A DNA stretch of 43,870 nt, taken from the sequence record PQ850596.1, one strand, 5' to 3'. Under the pieces are notes generated by a model. That model ran no database searches, was not told the DNA's origin, and saw only the letters and a program-made list of their open reading frames with translations. Position 1 is the stretch's first letter. Every line of letters begins with the position of its first letter. This DNA comes from Escherichia phage AnnaReinhart_Bas75. The translations under genes were made by a program, and so were the position numbers. This document shows, piece after piece, positions 4,418-41,633 of this stretch.

Positions 4418-4878
4418 TGATGGGCTTTTTCAAAGTAACTGACGTACCGTCTCGTCGCGTAGTCCAGTACGCCCGCGTGTCTGGCTCTGGCGAGAACGTG
4501 GTATTTATTGAGGACGAAAGTGTACTCGGTACACCGGTAGATGATATGCCGTTTGCAGATAAAACCGGTATTGCGTTGCCCGCCGCCGGTATGCTTTATG
4601 AAATTCCGTATCTGGCGGACGCTGGCGACGTGTATTTCTCTGTGCAACCAAAAGACGCTGAACTGGCCGACGGCAGCGCGACTATCACTGTCGAAGTTAA
4701 AGCAGGTGAAGCGCCGTATGCACTGACCTGGTACAAAGACGGTAAGGAAGTTGTCAACGCCCCGGAAGAGGCACTTTCCTTGACGGTTAACGCAGTGGGT
4801 GAATACTTCGTTAAAGTTACCGATGCTGATGGTGTAGAGGCTGTCAGTAAAGCTGCGAAGGTCACTAAGCCCGAATGA
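4417..4878 (+). CDS. Ig-like domain protein (possible capsid decoration protein)
   Basis: 153 aa; C-terminal segment TITVEVKAGEAPYALTWYKDGKEV...GEYFVKVTD resembles Ig-like (I-set/Big-type) domains; paralogous to 8190..8540. Confidence 0.5.
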   Translation: MMGFFKVTDVPSRRVVQYARVSGSGENVVFIEDESVLGTPVDDMPFADKTGIALPAAGMLYEIPYLADAGDVYFSVQPKDAELADGSATITVEVKAGEAPYALTWYKDGKEVVNAPEEALSLTVNAVGEYFVKVTDADGVEAVSKAAKVTKPE

Positions 4879-4881
4879 TAA

Positions 4882-4905
4882 AAGGCCCCATTAAGGGGCC
4901 TTAGT
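4882..4905. terminator. bidirectional rho-independent terminator AAGGCCCC-atta-GGGGCCTT
   Basis: 8-bp GC-rich stem flanked by A-run upstream and T-run downstream; lies between convergent genes 4417..4878 (+) and 4908..5111 (-). Confidence 0.7.
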
Positions 4906-4907
4906 TT

Positions 4908-5111
4908 TCAACGGAATCTTGTGTTTAAATCCTGCTCGTGGACGACCCTCAGAACAGTGTCATAATCCCCGTATCTTCCAGGTTCAAATATATCTAATGC
5001 CTTGTAAGCAGACATTGCGTCAGGGAAAACCTGCAGAACCTTTTTAACCCGGCACAAGTCACCGTCGAACTCTTCATCGAACTCTTGAACTACTTCGCAA
5101 ATTGCATACAT
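4908..5111 (-). CDS. hypothetical small acidic protein (67 aa), single-gene minus-strand insert
   Basis: ORF with AGGAGG RBS 8 nt before ATG, own early-type promoter (5139..5167) and shared terminator; opposite orientation to flanking structural genes. Confidence 0.6.
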   Translation of the reverse strand: MYAICEVVQEFDEEFDGDLCRVKKVLQVFPDAMSAYKALDIFEPGRYGDYDTVLRVVHEQDLNTRFR

Positions 5112-5138
5112 TTTTCACCTCCTGTTTAAGTTAACTGA

Positions 5139-5167
5139 ATAGTACCCTATTATATTGGGGTGTGCAA
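5139..5167 (-). promoter_or_regulatory. sigma70-like promoter TTGCAC-N17-TACTAT containing palindrome AATAG-N4-CTATT
   Basis: Read on minus strand: TTGCAC accccaatataataggg TACTAT, then AGGAGG RBS and ATG of 4908..5111. Near-identical to sites at 14262, 37025 and 38441. Confidence 0.6.
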
Positions 5168-5442
5168 ACTATTTATTTACGTATTCCAGTTATTCCACCG
5201 AATTGTAAATGTTGGAATAAACTATTCGAATAGTTGACTTTTCACTAAAAATATGATAAGCTCCACCTGAGCTTGTGAAATATGAACAAGCGACCGCGGC
5301 GCGGGCAGGTAACGGAGCGGGACGTAAGTCCTGAGTGTAGTTACGCTGACGCGTTCGGAAGGGCCATACTCTATTGCTTGTGTAAAAAGTAACAGGTTTA
5401 CTGAGATTACGCCGTTTCTATGTTTAAATGATAAGGACTAGC

Positions 5443-5468
5443 GCCCTGCTTTAAGGCAGGGCTTTACT
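5443..5468 (+). terminator. hairpin GCCCTGC-N-GCAGGGC followed by TTTACTT
   Basis: 7-bp stem with T-rich 3' flank, immediately upstream of the Rz RBS. Confidence 0.4.
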
Positions 5469-5486
5469 TATCGAGAAAGGAGAAAC

Positions 5487-5873
5487 ATGAATCTTAAAGC
5501 AACTGTCGTAGCAGGAGCATGTTTCATCATCCTGGTTTACGCACACGGCATCTACCAGTATCGCAGCGGATGGAACGAAGGCCGGGCTAATCTCGTTTCG
5601 CAGCAACAGCAGAAAGCACAGGCTGAGTTAGCGAAGAAAACACAACGGCAGCAGCAGGATGAATCGAAGGCCGCCGCCGCTGACAACGAAGGCAAGACGA
5701 AATCAGAGGTGATTACCCGTGAAGTCGTTAAGTACATTAAAACGCCTGGTCGCAGTGTGTGCGCTTTTGACCCTGAGCGCGTGCAGCTCAAGTCCCGCGC
5801 CGTCGCAAACGCCAACTCCATCCCCGGATACGACGATGATGCAGCCGCCGTGCAAACTGGCACCGCCAAGTAG
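5487..5873 (+). CDS. Rz: i-spanin (Rz-like inner membrane spanin)
   Basis: 128 aa; N-terminal transmembrane segment (VVAGACFIILVYAHGIY), then Gln/Ala/Lys-rich predicted coiled coil; contains an embedded out-of-frame lipoprotein ORF, the hallmark Rz/Rz1 arrangement. Confidence 0.6.
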   Translation: MNLKATVVAGACFIILVYAHGIYQYRSGWNEGRANLVSQQQQKAQAELAKKTQRQQQDESKAAAADNEGKTKSEVITREVVKYIKTPGRSVCAFDPERVQLKSRAVANANSIPGYDDDAAAVQTGTAK

Positions 5874-5982
5874 CGACGCCGACGAGGATTTGGCTATCGA
5901 CGTTCAGAACGCTGAATGTGTACGGCAACTGAGGCTGAAAGTGTTTATGTTGCAGGATTACGTGAGGAATATTCTGGAATAG
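5719..5982 (+). CDS. Rz1: o-spanin (Rz1-like outer membrane lipoprotein), overlapping the 3' end of Rz in another frame
   Basis: GTG start with GAGGTGA RBS; signal peptide ending in lipobox LSAC; Pro-rich mature region (SPAPSQTPTPSP...PPC), typical of Rz1. Confidence 0.55.
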   Translation: MKSLSTLKRLVAVCALLTLSACSSSPAPSQTPTPSPDTTMMQPPCKLAPPSSDADEDLAIDVQNAECVRQLRLKVFMLQDYVRNILE

Positions 5983-6064
5983 TTGCCTTGCATGTTGGAA
6001 TAATTTATTCTTGACATGTAAATCCGGGTGGCCCGGGTTCCAACGTCCAGGGGACATACTGACT

Positions 6065-6769
6065 ATGAATCGTTTTTTACGTTATCCGTTCCAGGAAGAA
6101 GCTGGGGCAGAAGATAAAGCTGGTGGCGGTGACGCGCCGAAAATGTTCACCGCTGAAGAAGTTCAGGCGCTGATTGAGAAAGAAGTTGCCGGGCTTAAGG
6201 CTAATCAGGAAGCATTGTTGGCGGAGAAGAAAGAAGCCGCTCGCAAAGCAAAAGAGGCCGAAGAAGAACGGCAGCGCGCGCACCAGGAGGCGTTAAAAGC
6301 CGCTGGTAAGATGGACGAGTTCGAAAAGACGATTCGTAGCCAGTATGACCCGGTGTTAGCCGAGAAAGACGGTCGCATCTCCAGAATGGCAGAGCGTATC
6401 CTCGGCAGCGAACGTAAAGCGGTGCTAGGCTCTTTCGCGGGTGACTTTATTACCCCGGAAGCAGTGGACATTCTTGCGCCGTTCGTTAAGACTGAGTTCG
6501 AAGGCGATGATGTGGTTACTAAGTTTGTTGGTGCAGACGGTAACGTAATCACGACTGACCCGGAACAGTTCCGCAAATACCTGCGCGAACACAAGGCGTT
6601 TTCGCATTTGATTAAAGCAAATGCAGCTTCCGGCGGCGGGGCTTCCGGTAGCAAAGGCGGCGGGGCCGCACCAGCGTTTAAAGACATGAGTGAAGCGGAG
6701 CGTATCGCTCTGTACGAATCGAACCCTGCCGAATTTGAACGGCAACTTAAAGCCCTGAGGAAAAAATAA
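6065..6769 (+). CDS. scaffolding protein
   Basis: Highly charged, Ala/Glu/Lys-rich coiled-coil-like protein immediately upstream of the major capsid gene; ORF listed from TTG 6011, ATG at 6065 preferred. Confidence 0.6.
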   Translation: MNRFLRYPFQEEAGAEDKAGGGDAPKMFTAEEVQALIEKEVAGLKANQEALLAEKKEAARKAKEAEEERQRAHQEALKAAGKMDEFEKTIRSQYDPVLAEKDGRISRMAERILGSERKAVLGSFAGDFITPEAVDILAPFVKTEFEGDDVVTKFVGADGNVITTDPEQFRKYLREHKAFSHLIKANAASGGGASGSKGGGAAPAFKDMSEAERIALYESNPAEFERQLKALRKK

Positions 6770-40361: not shown

Positions 40362-40670
40362 TTGGATAAATTTACTGAAACAGTGACTGGGTGGCTTCTG
40401 GCAGCCGCACTAGCTGGTGGGGTAATCGGACTACGACAACATAAGTCCGCTATTTCCGGCCCTATCGACGGCTTCTGCTTTATTGCAACTGGCTTCACTT
40501 GCGCCGTATTTGGCGCACCTCTCGCAGCTCAATGGTTTGGAATCACGGGCGACCGTGAAATCGCAGGCCTGGGCTTCATTATCGCTATTCTCTGGATGCC
40601 TATCTATTCCCGTCTGTCCGGTATCGTCGCCGGAGAATACATCGCACGTCGAGGAGGCCCGGATGAATGA
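40362..40670 (+). CDS. holin (three predicted transmembrane segments)
   Basis: 102 aa; three hydrophobic stretches and charged C-terminus; CTGGAGGA RBS; immediately upstream of endolysin. Confidence 0.6.
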   Translation: MDKFTETVTGWLLAAALAGGVIGLRQHKSAISGPIDGFCFIATGFTCAVFGAPLAAQWFGITGDREIAGLGFIIAILWMPIYSRLSGIVAGEYIARRGGPDE

Positions 40671-40935
40671 GTTATTCTGGTTCTGCGGTATGCTGGCAAT
40701 CGGAGGCACATCGCTGTTTAATGTGTATCATCCCAGCGTTGACGACGGGCTATTTGGCCGGGTGCTCTATATCCTGACTGCTATTGTCTGCGCCGCAGGA
40801 TGTATCCACCTGTTACAGGGCAGCATGTCTCCGACGCTGCCTGAGACATTAATCACATTAGTTGCGCTGCGCCAGATTCGTCAGGCGTGGCTGTCATACG
40901 GAGGACATAAGCGTGTCTCGAAATATTTCAGATAA
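40663..40935 (+). CDS. second lysis-associated membrane protein (two TMDs; holin or antiholin candidate)
   Basis: 90 aa from ATG 40663 (GGAGG RBS); two hydrophobic segments; overlaps both neighbours. Confidence 0.45.
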   Translation: MNELFWFCGMLAIGGTSLFNVYHPSVDDGLFGRVLYILTAIVCAAGCIHLLQGSMSPTLPETLITLVALRQIRQAWLSYGGHKRVSKYFR

Positions 40936-41398
40936 TGGATTGCATTTCACCGCTGCGTTCGAGGGATTCCGCGGAACTGCATACCGCGCTACGCCGAACG
41001 AGAAGTACCTGACTATCGGGTACGGGCACTATGGGCCGGACGTAACCCCGGGTAAGACCATCACACCGGGGCAAGGCCTCCTGTTACTGAATCGTGATAT
41101 GGCTAAGGCCGTAGCTGCGGTTGACGCAGCAGCACACCATTCATTGACACAGGCACAGTTCGATGCAGTGTGCGACCTGGTATACAACGCAGGTGCTGGT
41201 GTGATTGCAGCTGCTACCGGCACAGGAAAGGCGCTGCGTTCTGGTGACATCGCGACACTGCGGGCTAAACTGGCGCTGTTTATCAACCAGAACGGCAAAC
41301 CGTTACTTGGTCTGCGCCGCCGTACTGCCGGGCGTCTTGCACTGTTTGACGGCAAGCCGTGGCAGGAGGCGGAGGCCATTGGGAGGGCTGTTAAATGA
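40913..41398 (+). CDS. endolysin, phage lysozyme (GH24 / T4-lysozyme-like)
   Basis: 161 aa from GTG 40913 (GGAGGA RBS); N-terminal catalytic region FEGFRGTAYRATPNEKYLTIGYGH resembles the E...D...T lysozyme core. Confidence 0.75.
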   Translation: MSRNISDNGLHFTAAFEGFRGTAYRATPNEKYLTIGYGHYGPDVTPGKTITPGQGLLLLNRDMAKAVAAVDAAAHHSLTQAQFDAVCDLVYNAGAGVIAAATGTGKALRSGDIATLRAKLALFINQNGKPLLGLRRRTAGRLALFDGKPWQEAEAIGRAVK

Positions 41399-41487
41399 CA
41401 GAGTTTGACTTCATTTTCCTGGCTATTGGAGCTGGTGCGATAGCTGGCGCGATTTGGGGTGTGATTGACGCTCTCCGTAAAGGTTGA
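41395..41487 (+). CDS. small hydrophobic peptide (30 aa) coupled to endolysin
   Basis: ATG overlaps endolysin stop (ATGA); single Gly/Ala-rich TM-like helix. Confidence 0.35.
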   Translation: MTEFDFIFLAIGAGAIAGAIWGVIDALRKG

Positions 41488-41553
41488 CACCTAAGACTAA
41501 TCCGACGATACTTAAATCACCTCCTGTTCCATCCCTCTGCTCTCCAGTTTTAT

Positions 41554-41583
41554 CCCGGCCCTGACCCAGCCGGGATTTTTTTA
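41554..41583 (+). terminator. rho-independent terminator CCCGGC-N9-GCCGGG followed by ATTTTTTT
   Basis: 6-bp GC stem plus 7-T run after the lysis cassette. Confidence 0.7.
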
Positions 41584-41604: not shown

Positions 41605-41633
41605 TTGACTATTACCTACGACCCTATTATATT
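41605..41633 (+). promoter_or_regulatory. sigma70-like promoter TTGACT-N17-TATATT
   Basis: Followed by CGACAACGAGAACGGAG leader similar to those after promoters 37025 and 38441. Confidence 0.5.

Follow-up and report, generated by a model that had tools for sequence, protein, structure and literature searches.

A probable overlapped spanin pair among the head genes of the Kagunavirus phage AnnaReinhart_Bas75

Two overlapping reading frames at positions 5487-5982 of Escherichia phage AnnaReinhart_Bas75 raise two questions: whether together they encode a spanin pair and, if so, how their location away from the holin and endolysin genes should be understood. The window, that is, the whole stretch of 43,870 nucleotides analysed here, is a complete Kagunavirus genome (Guernseyvirinae), approximately 99% identical to phages DUEC01 and Bas70. 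An earlier note, made without tools, recognised an overlapped spanin pair at this locus and chose the correct non-ATG start for its second gene; it called the pair "Rz/Rz1-type" and its separation from the lysis genes notable. We conclude that 5487-5982 encodes, with high probability, a true two-component spanin with overlapped architecture, belonging to the "Jersey" family of Guernseyvirinae and Dhillonvirus siphophages. For the Kagunavirus group, the pair and its place in the head-gene region already appear in annotations and catalogues, and the identification is correct but ordinary.

The first of the two genes, which we call the i-spanin gene, runs on the plus strand from an ATG at 5487 to a TAG ending at 5873, is preceded by the Shine-Dalgarno sequence AAGGAG at 5477-5482, and translates into 128 aa. 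The peak 19-residue Kyte-Doolittle window covers residues 5-23 (ATVVAGACFIILVYAHGIY, mean 1.85), with K4 on the N-terminal side of the membrane helix; the periplasmic part is polyQ-rich and helical, and contains Cys92. In a single-sequence AlphaFold model, residues 3-64 form one long helix (block-mean pLDDT 77-93), while residues 84-128 are modelled at low confidence and the C-terminal interaction domain is not captured. Thus, of the N-terminal transmembrane helix and coiled-coil periplasmic part previously ascribed to this gene, the former agrees with the hydropathy profile and the latter is backed only as far as the modelled helix 3-64. Small size, a single N-terminal transmembrane domain and a largely helical periplasmic C-terminal domain are the properties by which i-spanins are recognised (PMC6139136), and all are found here. 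The ratio pN/pS is 0.29 in the non-overlapped part of the gene. Relatives of the protein are present in 661 phage records, with identities of 95% to K1G and 63-67% to SETP3 and SETP7.

The second, or o-spanin, gene lies in the +1 frame of the same strand, from a GTG at 5719 to a TAG ending at 5982, and encodes an 87-aa lipoprotein precursor. It overlaps the i-spanin gene by 155 nt and extends 109 nt past the i-spanin stop. A Shine-Dalgarno-like GAGGTGA (5706-5712, plus strand) lies within the i-spanin coding sequence, 6 nt upstream of the GTG, and its GAGG core is kept in relatives. The predicted signal peptide, MKSLSTLKRLVAVCALLTLSA, would be cut before Cys22 and is followed by CSS; the lipobox is LSAC, with Ser at +2. 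The mature protein has 66 aa, including 9 Pro, together with Cys45 and Cys67. The earlier note had listed the GTG start, the GAGGTGA, the LSAC lipobox, a Pro-rich body and the 109-nt extension, and each of these is where it had placed them. By inspection, the sequence has the lipobox Cys and the absence of Asp at +2 expected of an o-spanin (PMC6139136). When all 43,870 bases were scanned in six frames for lipoprotein signals, this was the only ORF that emerged. Cysteines in the periplasmic parts, as needed for intermolecular disulfides, occur in both proteins (Cys92 of the i-spanin; Cys45 and Cys67 of the o-spanin).

An o-spanin gene may be embedded in, overlap or follow its i-spanin gene; the arrangement here, in the +1 frame, is of the overlapped class. 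Kongari et al. 2018 (PMC6139136) group Jersey, K1G, K1H and K1ind1-3 into one overlapped spanin family, characterised by a 155-bp overlap, polyQ stretches and the o-spanin cysteines Cys45 and Cys67, and all of these traits are seen in our pair. Profile comparisons agree, with full-length similarity to the Jersey i- and o-spanin families (PHROG 2536/5672/1267). The i-spanin matches phrog_2536, 'Rz-like spanin', over its full length (residues 1-128, E=6.6e-57), and the o-spanin matches phrog_5672 (E=4.4e-30) and, over residues 9-86, phrog_1267 (E=3.6e-20). The same genes are annotated in RefSeq for phage K1G as gp06 and gp07 (YP_009168786, 'Rz-like spanin', and YP_009168787, 'overlapping gene'), with the same lengths of 128 and 87 aa and with the internal start at the same 232-nt offset, hence the same 155-nt overlap. 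The K1G pair likewise lies between the Hoc-like decoration and scaffold genes, and it differs from ours only by strain-level substitutions and by a shorter gap upstream of the spanins; here, the variable segment in that gap holds a 67-aa reverse-strand ORF (4908-5111). The reading of the locus as an overlapped two-component spanin therefore draws support from architecture, PHROG matches, the K1G annotation and the spanin census (PMC6139136) alike.

The relation to lambda Rz/Rz1 is one of architecture rather than of sequence. In both systems a type-II inner-membrane protein is paired with a short, Pro-rich lipoprotein of the outer membrane whose gene occupies another frame, and both have periplasmic cysteines; by analogy, the two pairs may also share the role of disrupting the outer membrane as the last step of lysis. 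In lambda, however, Rz1 is fully embedded in Rz, whereas the o-spanin gene here runs 109 nt beyond the i-spanin gene, and homology to the lambda proteins is undetectable at the Pfam level. Indeed, neither spanin matches any Pfam family above threshold: at E≤1, the i-spanin finds only DUF2514 (16.8 bits against a cut-off of 26, E=0.0074) and Nucleoside_tran, both sub-threshold, the o-spanin finds only DUF6491 (E=0.2), and no Rz or Rz1 family appears for either. Neither Rz (Pfam Phage_lysis) nor Rz1 is reached at gathering score, and we rejected filing the pair under these families since no profile passed threshold. The label "Rz/Rz1-type" is thus apt for architecture and inferred function, but not for sequence family. 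The LysB/LysC genes of P2, which is listed among the overlapped spanin families (PMC6139136), likewise have the overlapped architecture in common with our pair and differ from it in sequence family.

It is important to establish which start of the second frame is used, as three of the four related records examined (the GenBank records of Bas70, fEg-Eco06 and SETP7) annotate a truncated, 48-aa form. One could argue, therefore, that the true second product is a 48-aa C-terminal peptide beginning at ATG 5839, the +1 frame upstream of it being open by accident. Patterns of substitution are relevant here. In the 109-nt extension pN/pS is 0.105 in the o-spanin frame, as opposed to 1.06 and 2.50 for the remaining frames; within the 155-nt overlap, pN/pS in the o-spanin frame is 1.02, with no purifying-selection signal of its own, as would be expected of an accidental frame. 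Moreover, phrog_5672 is a 47-position profile built on the 48-aa form, and matches the C-terminal part of the o-spanin only. Yet a peptide of 48 aa would lack a signal sequence and hence have no route into the periplasm. All relatives that share the overlapped layout have a GTG or ATG at the position equivalent to 5719, behind the conserved GAGG, from which the +1 frame stays open, and the long form is retained down to approximately 63% i-spanin identity, with its lipobox Cys, positive n-region and hydrophobic core; Cys45 and Cys67 are conserved as well. Ten Salmonella-phage relatives were missed by the strict lipobox pattern because their box is LNGC, which fits the relaxed rule only, but none of them lacks the ORF, the start or the Cys. 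The case for the predicted signal peptide and Pro-rich linker is thus made by conservation of the reading frame, its start codon and the lipobox rather than by substitution rates. The long form is also the one used for K1G in RefSeq, which has the same start, and the one that yields the 155-bp overlap reported in PMC6139136; the same census describes wrong or missing o-spanin starts as common annotation errors. We regard the start at 5839 as very improbable, and retain GTG 5719.

The architecture, together with the curated classification, points to a spanin function for the two proteins encoded at 5487-5982. A type-II membrane protein and a small Pro-rich lipoprotein in out-of-frame overlap constitute the defining architecture of spanins, which argues against assigning the pair instead to a non-lysis envelope system, such as a superinfection-exclusion or receptor-masking lipoprotein (T5 Llp and Cor are examples) acting with a membrane partner. 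To our knowledge, exclusion lipoproteins are single genes with no overlapped membrane partner. Such an assignment would be compatible with the unlinked position of the pair, with the absence of Pfam-level homology to Rz/Rz1, and with the literature, in which we found no direct experiment (complementation, knock-out or lipid labelling) for any Jersey-family spanin. But the genome holds no other spanin candidate, its endolysin looks canonical, and the curated census places the Jersey family among the spanins (PMC6139136). We therefore give a non-lysis role very little weight, and take the pair to be a spanin. The endolysin, in whose sequence an N-terminal membrane segment is not visible, looks like a canonical cytoplasmic enzyme; because it has no such segment, a separate outer-membrane-disrupting function is to be expected under the three-step model of lysis.

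How the pair would act can be proposed from the lambda Rz/Rz1 analogy and from established spanin biology. The N-terminal helix of the 128-aa i-spanin would tether the protein to the inner membrane, its helical, polyQ-rich domain lying in the periplasm. The 87-aa o-spanin precursor would be processed between LSA and C and lipidated, and Ser at +2 would direct its sorting to the outer membrane. The two proteins would then bind through their C-terminal parts into a complex spanning the periplasm, probably stabilised by disulfides involving Cys92 of the i-spanin and Cys45 and Cys67 of the o-spanin, and the peptidoglycan mesh would hold this complex in check. Once the holins had released the endolysin and the wall had been degraded, the spanin complex would destroy the outer membrane, the probable mechanism being fusion of the inner and outer membranes. 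Since spanins can build up without harm for as long as the wall is intact, their genes would need no adjacency to those of holin and endolysin.

The remaining lysis genes all lie on the plus strand near the other end of the map as deposited. They comprise holin 1 (40362-40670; phrog_2359, E=1e-29), holin 2 (40663-40935; phrog_2508, E=1.5e-34) and an endolysin (approximately 40913-41398, its start taken from the Bas70 annotation; Pfam Phage_lysozyme, 6.8e-27, and also phrog_33703 and phrog_7), which is followed by a hydrophobic 30-aa ORF (41395-41487). The PHROG and Pfam matches confirm the span 40362-41487 previously proposed for the holin-endolysin genes. After the cassette comes a plus-strand hairpin resembling an intrinsic terminator (41552-41582; ATCCCGGC-N9-GCCGGGAT and then T7), which was identified by eye, the terminator scan having missed it because its loop is 9 nt long; beyond it the promoter scan found a sigma-70-like promoter (41605-41633, plus strand).

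That the spanins are not adjacent to the holins and endolysin is borne out, but the further claim, that the early block separates them, is not. The apparent separation of approximately 34.5 kb across the early block is an artefact of where the map was opened. Because the entries for related phages are circular and a relative is predicted to package its DNA by the headful mechanism, the cassette is better placed approximately 7.9 kb upstream of the spanins: on a circular map, 7,958 nt lie between the endolysin stop (41398) and the i-spanin start, on the same strand, and the interval is occupied by small ORFs and the terminase-to-decoration genes. Hence there is no contiguous holin-endolysin-spanin cassette of the lambda type, in which Rz/Rz1 directly follow S and R, the pair here being 7.9 kb from the endolysin; adjacency is not a defining feature of spanins. 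The P2 LysB/LysC pair sits in a lysis cassette. In T4, the PseT.3/PseT.2 spanin genes are near neither the holin (t) nor the endolysin (e) (PMC6139136), so that unlinked spanins are an established situation. T4 otherwise differs, with a separated architecture, unrelated sequence, a much larger genome and all of its lysis genes scattered, whereas here the holins and endolysin are still clustered and the spanins alone stand apart.

Comparison with relatives indicates how old this position is. Among 48 related metagenomic loci, all those that extend far enough show the gene order decoration, spanins, scaffold, major capsid, and those reaching the lysis genes have holin-holin-endolysin approximately 7.7-9.1 kb upstream of the spanins on the same strand. 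The distant Guernseyvirinae TS33 and TS6 have the spanins in the identical position, and in Dhillonvirus JLBYU60 the pair is flanked by the head-morphogenesis gene, which the i-spanin start overlaps, and the scaffold gene. In a published Kagunavirus, ORF7/8 are the spanin and ORF66-68 the holins and endolysin (PMC7203180). In the literature, the unlinked position in Guernseyvirinae is shown in gene lists, and we found no explicit discussion of it. The position of the spanins among the head genes is ancestral for the lineage, not peculiar to this genome, and to call the split module notable, as was done before, overstates the case for an arrangement that is conserved and annotated across Guernseyvirinae and has a precedent in T4.

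This synteny also bears on whether the unlinked position could instead be derived, the product of a rearrangement that happened recently in this genome or of a mobile insertion resembling a moron. A 19-nt motif and a 13-nt motif each occur twice, flanking the spanin cassette, and a variable insertion hotspot adjoins it, the gap between the decoration and i-spanin genes ranging from 317 to 1117 nt in relatives; both could be taken as traces of such an event. But the position is identical in the 48 loci, in TS33 and in TS6, and corresponds to that in Dhillonvirus, and the variation in the gap is confined to the segment upstream of a promoter-like region. The flanking motifs are themselves conserved, regulatory-looking sequences upstream of the spanin and scaffold genes, rather than insertion scars: in TS6, where a reverse ORF has been inserted, the second motif copy remains with the scaffold gene. 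For these reasons we rejected the motif copies as marks of mobile insertion, and an insertion origin seems to us exceedingly improbable, so that we keep to an ancestral position.

The motifs belong to a series of regulatory-looking elements around the spanin and scaffold genes. The terminase-to-decoration block is closed by a terminator-like hairpin at 4882-4902, after the head-decoration stop at 4878. It is not assigned to a strand: the terminator scan reports it on the minus strand, while the plus strand reads AAGGCCCCATTAAGGGGCCTT and then AGTTTT. Salmonella-phage relatives have a counterpart of this hairpin. Further on, a plus-strand promoter-like region (5182-5262) is conserved, in two alignments, among Kagunavirus-like and Jerseyvirus-like relatives. 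Its 5' part holds TATTCC-AGT-TATTCC at 5182-5196 and the palindrome GAATA-N3-TATTC at 5215-5227; then come a -35 TTGACT (5234-5239), a 17-nt spacer ending in an extended -10 TG (5254-5255), and a -10 TAAGCT (5257-5262). The consensus promoter scan did not flag this element because its -10 matches at only three of six positions, and it is from conservation that we infer a promoter. A second GGAATA/TATTC cluster (5966-6064, plus strand; repeat families D3 and D9) overlaps the o-spanin stop and is nearly invariant across relatives; after its half-sites come TTGACA at 6011-6016, a hairpin at 6024-6036 and the nearly invariant GTCCAGGGGACATACTGACT, and then the scaffold ATG at 6065.

Between the promoter-like motif and the i-spanin gene lies a structured leader of approximately 200 nt with covariation. 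RNAalifold, applied to 39 distinct relatives, gives a compound stem-loop with compensatory changes at 5294-5358 (plus strand): 98.4% of cells are paired, both sides have changed in 7 of 22 pairs, and the covariation is 0.22, whereas sliding the partners yields no more than 0.064. The terminator scan adds a GC-rich plus-strand hairpin, GCCCTGC-TTTAAG-GCAGGGC (5443-5462), with a weak T tract, which ends 24 nt upstream of the i-spanin ATG. Relatives carry the compensatory variants CCCTGC, CCCCGC and CCCGGC, and Hafnia phage TS33 and Salmonella phage TS6 have a hairpin of different sequence in its place. This hairpin resembles a terminator; a stabilising or attenuating role is also conceivable. 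Rfam has no match to the plus strand of the leader, either in the whole genome at gathering score or in 5100-6100 at E≤10; the hits listed are weak, and fall on the opposite strand or within coding regions. The promoter-like motif, leader and hairpin are annotated in none of the four related records examined. A 36-aa ORF at 5282-5392 is unlikely to be a gene, its start region being deleted in Salmonella-phage relatives and the ORF lying in the covarying stems.

Because they lie in the late head block and have the conserved promoter-like element and structured leader in front of them, the spanins are most likely expressed with the head genes, if these conserved sequences do function as a promoter. 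We also considered whether the spanins might head a separately controlled late unit, governed by an operator-like array, a leader RNA and a hairpin, rather than being transcribed by mere read-through of the head operon. Such a unit would consist of GGAATA/TATTCC half-sites arrayed, throughout the lineage, at a weak promoter of the extended -10 type, with a second copy of the array before the scaffold gene; of a leader RNA of approximately 200 nt whose structure is conserved by covariation; and of a hairpin that ends 24 nt short of the start codon, in a logic comparable to that of lambda pR'-6S-tR'. We hold this to be possible but unlikely. A transcription map for Guernseyvirinae was not found in the literature, in a search that was broad and poorly targeted and so gives a weak negative. 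If such a unit does exist, it would amount to an undescribed cis-regulatory RNA or attenuator that sets the timing of spanin and head-gene expression independently of the holin and endolysin.

The arrangement in this genome illustrates the accepted point that linkage of spanins to holin and endolysin is unnecessary. The correct o-spanin start has practical value, since the 48-aa "spanin" of three of the four related records lacks the lipoprotein signal. The conserved motif and leader are the only part that might repay further work. Guernseyvirinae are widely used in phage-therapy and biocontrol studies, and the conserved promoter-like motif and leader before their spanin and scaffold genes could help to define late-gene regulation in this group.

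The inner-membrane partner of the spanin pair (the i-spanin) is encoded on the plus strand from ATG 5487 to TAG 5873, exactly as the earlier note had it. Its gene is preceded by a Shine-Dalgarno sequence, AAGGAG (5477-5482), and its 128-residue product has a hydropathy peak (19-residue window, Kyte-Doolittle, mean 1.85) at residues 5-23, ATVVAGACFIILVYAHGIY, with K4 preceding. The periplasmic part had been called a coiled coil. In a single-sequence AlphaFold model, residues 3-64 form one long helix (block-mean pLDDT 77-93), residues 69-83 form a weak helix, and the last 45 residues have no confident fold; the model supports a helical stalk, although a coiled coil is not shown by the analyses run.

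The outer-membrane partner (the o-spanin) is an 87-residue product of the same strand, read from GTG 5719 to TAG 5982 in the +1 frame relative to the i-spanin. The features that the earlier note ascribed to this second gene can all be read in the sequence: the GTG start, the Shine-Dalgarno-like GAGGTGA (5706-5712, 6 nt 5' of the start), the lipobox LSAC, and an extension of 109 nt past the i-spanin stop, beyond an overlap of 155 nt. The N-terminus, MKSLSTLKRLVAVCALLTLSA followed by CSS, comprises a charged n-region, a hydrophobic core and the lipobox, with Cys22 and a Ser at +2. Lipoproteins with Ser at +2 are sorted to the outer membrane under the Lol rules, and the o-spanin is therefore predicted to be an outer-membrane lipoprotein. 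Its mature form has 66 residues, including 9 Pro, Cys45 and Cys67. When all six frames of the window were scanned for lipoprotein signals (the relaxed lipobox of the spanin literature, plus a charged n-region and a hydrophobic core), this ORF was the sole match.

We then compared the pair with a set of 48 related loci from IMG/VR. Every one of them that has the overlapped layout carries a GTG or ATG at the identical position, from which the +1 frame is open, and keeps the lipobox Cys, Cys45 and Cys67, down to about 63% i-spanin identity. Since a swap between GTG and ATG at the o-spanin start replaces Arg by His in the i-spanin frame, it is the start codon that is preserved. Among 40 distinct ungapped sequences, pN/pS in the i-only part is 0.29 in the i-spanin frame, versus 1.08 and 1.54 in the other frames; in the 109-nt o-only extension it is 0.105 in the o-spanin frame, versus 2.50 and 1.06. 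Judged by these low values in their own frames and high values in the others, both genes are coding. Within the overlap, where pN/pS is 0.40 in the i-spanin frame and 1.02 in the o-spanin frame, the substitution pattern indicates that constraint is dominated by the i-spanin C-terminus; what is kept of the o-spanin signal peptide and Pro-rich linker is their kind (ORF, start, lipobox and composition), not their exact sequence.

From end to end, the i-spanin matches phrog_2536, "Rz-like spanin" (6.6e-57), and it has relatives in 661 phage records; the one in K1G, which is the type species of the genus Kagunavirus, shares 95% identity. The o-spanin matches phrog_1267 over residues 9-86 (3.6e-20) and phrog_5672, a 47-position profile, over its C-terminal 47 residues only (4.4e-30). 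All testable features that define a two-component spanin are present in the pair, which also belongs by sequence to the Jersey family. In their spanin census, Kongari et al. 2018 (PMC6139136) give this family 27 members and an overlapped architecture, include in it Jersey, SETP3, K1G, K1H, K1ind1-3 and the Dhillonvirus-type HK578, EP23 and JL1, and describe a 155-bp overlap in the Jersey spanins, polyQ stretches in the i-spanin, and constant Cys45 and Cys67 in the o-spanin; each of these recurs in the window. One Kagunavirus-like locus (L037, 10001-10586) instead carries a 'separated' variant, with a 118-aa i-spanin, an 81-aa o-spanin and an overlap of 14 nt. Its o-spanin has an unrelated signal peptide with lipobox ITGC, its flanking genes are otherwise as elsewhere, and it resembles the transition between Jersey and FSL_SP-031 discussed in PMC6139136.

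The earlier note had labelled the pair "Rz/Rz1-type". As a description of architecture this holds, but membership in the lambda Rz and Rz1 sequence families is rejected: a Pfam search at E<=1 returned no match to either, only a sub-threshold one to DUF2514. Because the features of a spanin are present while the Pfam tests failed, we regard the pair as probably alike to Rz/Rz1 in working, without detectable sequence homology.

The pair is, moreover, already known: RefSeq has it annotated, the spanin census includes it, and hundreds of genomes carry it. RefSeq K1G has the two genes at 4663-5049 and 4895-5158, both "Rz-like spanin" and the second flagged "overlapping gene"; the 232-nt start offset and 264-nt o-spanin length equal those of the window, so that the full 87-aa form is annotated there. 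In Bas70, fEg-Eco06 and SETP7, by contrast, the annotated o-spanin begins at an internal ATG and is cut to 47-48 aa, without signal peptide or lipobox (window 5839-5982; related loci L001 5839-5982, L053 1337-1483 and L055 1253-1396). GTG 5719 is thus a better start than that annotated in three of the four related records examined. Gene lists also place spanins apart from the holins and endolysin in a Kagunavirus genome (ORF7/8 versus ORF66-68; PMC7203180) and in a Jerseyvirus paper (Gp_009/010 versus Gp_063-065). With RefSeq K1G and PMC6139136, these lists mean that both genes, the overlap between them and their place away from the cassette were already on record. Our literature search found no paper discussing the separation, nor an experimental test of the Jersey family. 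The observation in the earlier note is confirmed, and its interpretation supported.

The lysis cassette is real where the earlier note put it. It comprises a holin (40362-40670; phrog_2359, 1e-29), a second holin (40663-40935; phrog_2508, 1.5e-34) and an endolysin (about 40913-41398; Pfam Phage_lysozyme, 6.8e-27) in which no N-terminal membrane segment was seen. A hydrophobic 30-aa ORF, MTEFDFIFLAIGAGAIAGAIWGVIDALRKG (41395-41487), starts in an ATGA overlapping the endolysin stop. It has no lipobox and gives tblastn matches in only two of the related loci, and at the corresponding place in Bas70 a different small ORF is annotated; it may add a further membrane component to the cassette, or be no gene. 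A strong hairpin with T7 (41552-41582) and a sigma-70-like promoter (41605-41633) follow. In the standard three-step model of lysis for Gram-negative hosts, a canonical holin-endolysin pair also needs a function that disrupts the outer membrane, and the sole candidate for it in this genome is 5487-5982.

The 2 kb around the spanins are 99.1% identical to Escherichia phage vB_Ec_DUEC01 and 99.0% to Bas70, and match 482 phage records, for the most part Kagunavirus and Jerseyvirus siphophages of Salmonella and Escherichia. Since Bas70 is also collinear with the window over its whole length, beginning with the small terminase gene at base 1, the sequence comparison identifies the window as the complete genome of a Kagunavirus (subfamily Guernseyvirinae), its map starting at the terminase gene. 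The large terminase gene (539-1810), compared with loci L003-L037, occurs in two versions, about 96-100% or only about 54% identical to the window, among genomes otherwise closely related, a sign that members of the genus have exchanged the terminase module. Related records are deposited as circular, and a relative is predicted to package by the headful mechanism (PMC6753286); therefore, distances across the ends of the linear map are arbitrary. On that map spanins and cassette would lie about 34.5 kb apart, but round the circle the spanins are only 7,869 nt from the end of the cassette region at 41487 and 7,958 nt from the endolysin stop.

The 48 loci all share one gene order: decoration gene, spanin pair, scaffold, major capsid protein. 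Those that reach as far as the cassette have holin-holin-endolysin on the same strand, 7.7-9.1 kb upstream of the spanins, separated by about 2 kb of small ORFs and then terminase, portal, head-morphogenesis and decoration genes. Hafnia phage TS33 and Salmonella phage TS6, which are distant members of Guernseyvirinae with 46-53% i-spanin identity, have kept the position. It corresponds in Dhillonvirus JLBYU60 (L052 3312-3753), where a homologous pair lies between head-morphogenesis and scaffold genes; there the i-spanin start overlaps the head-morphogenesis gene end, without a leader, and two reverse-strand ORFs are inserted between o-spanin and scaffold genes. By these comparisons, placement within the head-gene block is ancestral, and it is consistent with late co-expression. 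Unlinked spanins also have a textbook precedent in T4, whose pseT.3 and pseT.2 lie away from the genes for holin and endolysin (PMC6139136). Thus the separation that the earlier note called notable stands, but, given synteny throughout the lineage and the T4 precedent, it is not unusual.

The gap between decoration and i-spanin genes varies from 317 to 1117 nt in relatives, its last ~320 nt being conserved everywhere. The variable part (4879-5181), an insertion hotspot following the decoration-gene terminator hairpin (4882-4902), holds in the window a minus-strand 67-aa ORF (4908-5111) with a weak phrog_27256 match, found in only four of the 48 loci. The conserved block (5182-5486) contains GGAATA/TATTCC half-sites (TATTCC-AGT-TATTCC, 5182-5196), a palindrome GAATA-N3-TATTC (5215-5227), and a promoter-like site with -35 TTGACT (5234-5239), a 17-nt spacer ending in TG (5254-5255) and a weak extended -10 TAAGCT (5257-5262). 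Between this site and the i-spanin gene is a leader of about 200 nt with covariation-supported stems. A compound stem (5294-5358) and a GC hairpin (5443-5462), which has a weak T tract and stops 24 nt short of the i-spanin ATG, are 98.4% paired across 39 distinct relatives; 7 of 22 pairs changed on both sides, and covariation was 0.22 versus at most 0.064 with partners slid, in sequences that form two main clades and therefore share many of these changes by descent. A 36-aa ORF inside these stems (5282-5392), a hypothetical protein in Bas70 and fEg-Eco06, is probably no gene, because the relatives from Salmonella phages have lost its start region.

From the block upstream of the i-spanin, two motif modules, of 19 nt and 13 nt, recur with order swapped at 5966-6010, straddling the o-spanin stop, in a region (5966-6064) that continues with TTGACA, then a hairpin at 6024-6036 and, ending directly at the scaffold ATG, the 20-mer GTCCAGGGGACATACTGACT, which is nearly invariant. 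In TS6, a reverse ORF is inserted after the o-spanin and the motif block stays with the scaffold gene; because of this, and of the overlap with the stop, the DNA sequence itself may also constrain the invariant C-terminus of the o-spanin (RNILE-stop). From the conservation we infer a related pair of regions regulating late genes, the first serving the spanins and the second the scaffold and capsid genes. The leader and motif array are the sole elements around the pair without annotation in the four related records examined or a family match in Rfam, and they would merit a note rather than a claim.

The analysis shows how the genes are built, which targeting signals they encode, how far they are conserved, the family to which they belong and their synteny; for the steps of lysis we follow the lambda Rz/Rz1 paradigm. 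The i-spanin would be anchored in the inner membrane with its N-terminus inside, and the o-spanin would be lipidated and then sorted to the outer membrane. The two would join across the periplasm via their C-terminal parts, with disulfides via Cys92 and Cys45/Cys67, and the complex would be restrained by the intact wall. Upon holin triggering and wall degradation, it would destroy the outer membrane, probably by membrane fusion. Because such a complex would do nothing while the wall persists, the spanin genes would need no linkage to those for holin and endolysin, and expression alongside the late head genes would suffice.
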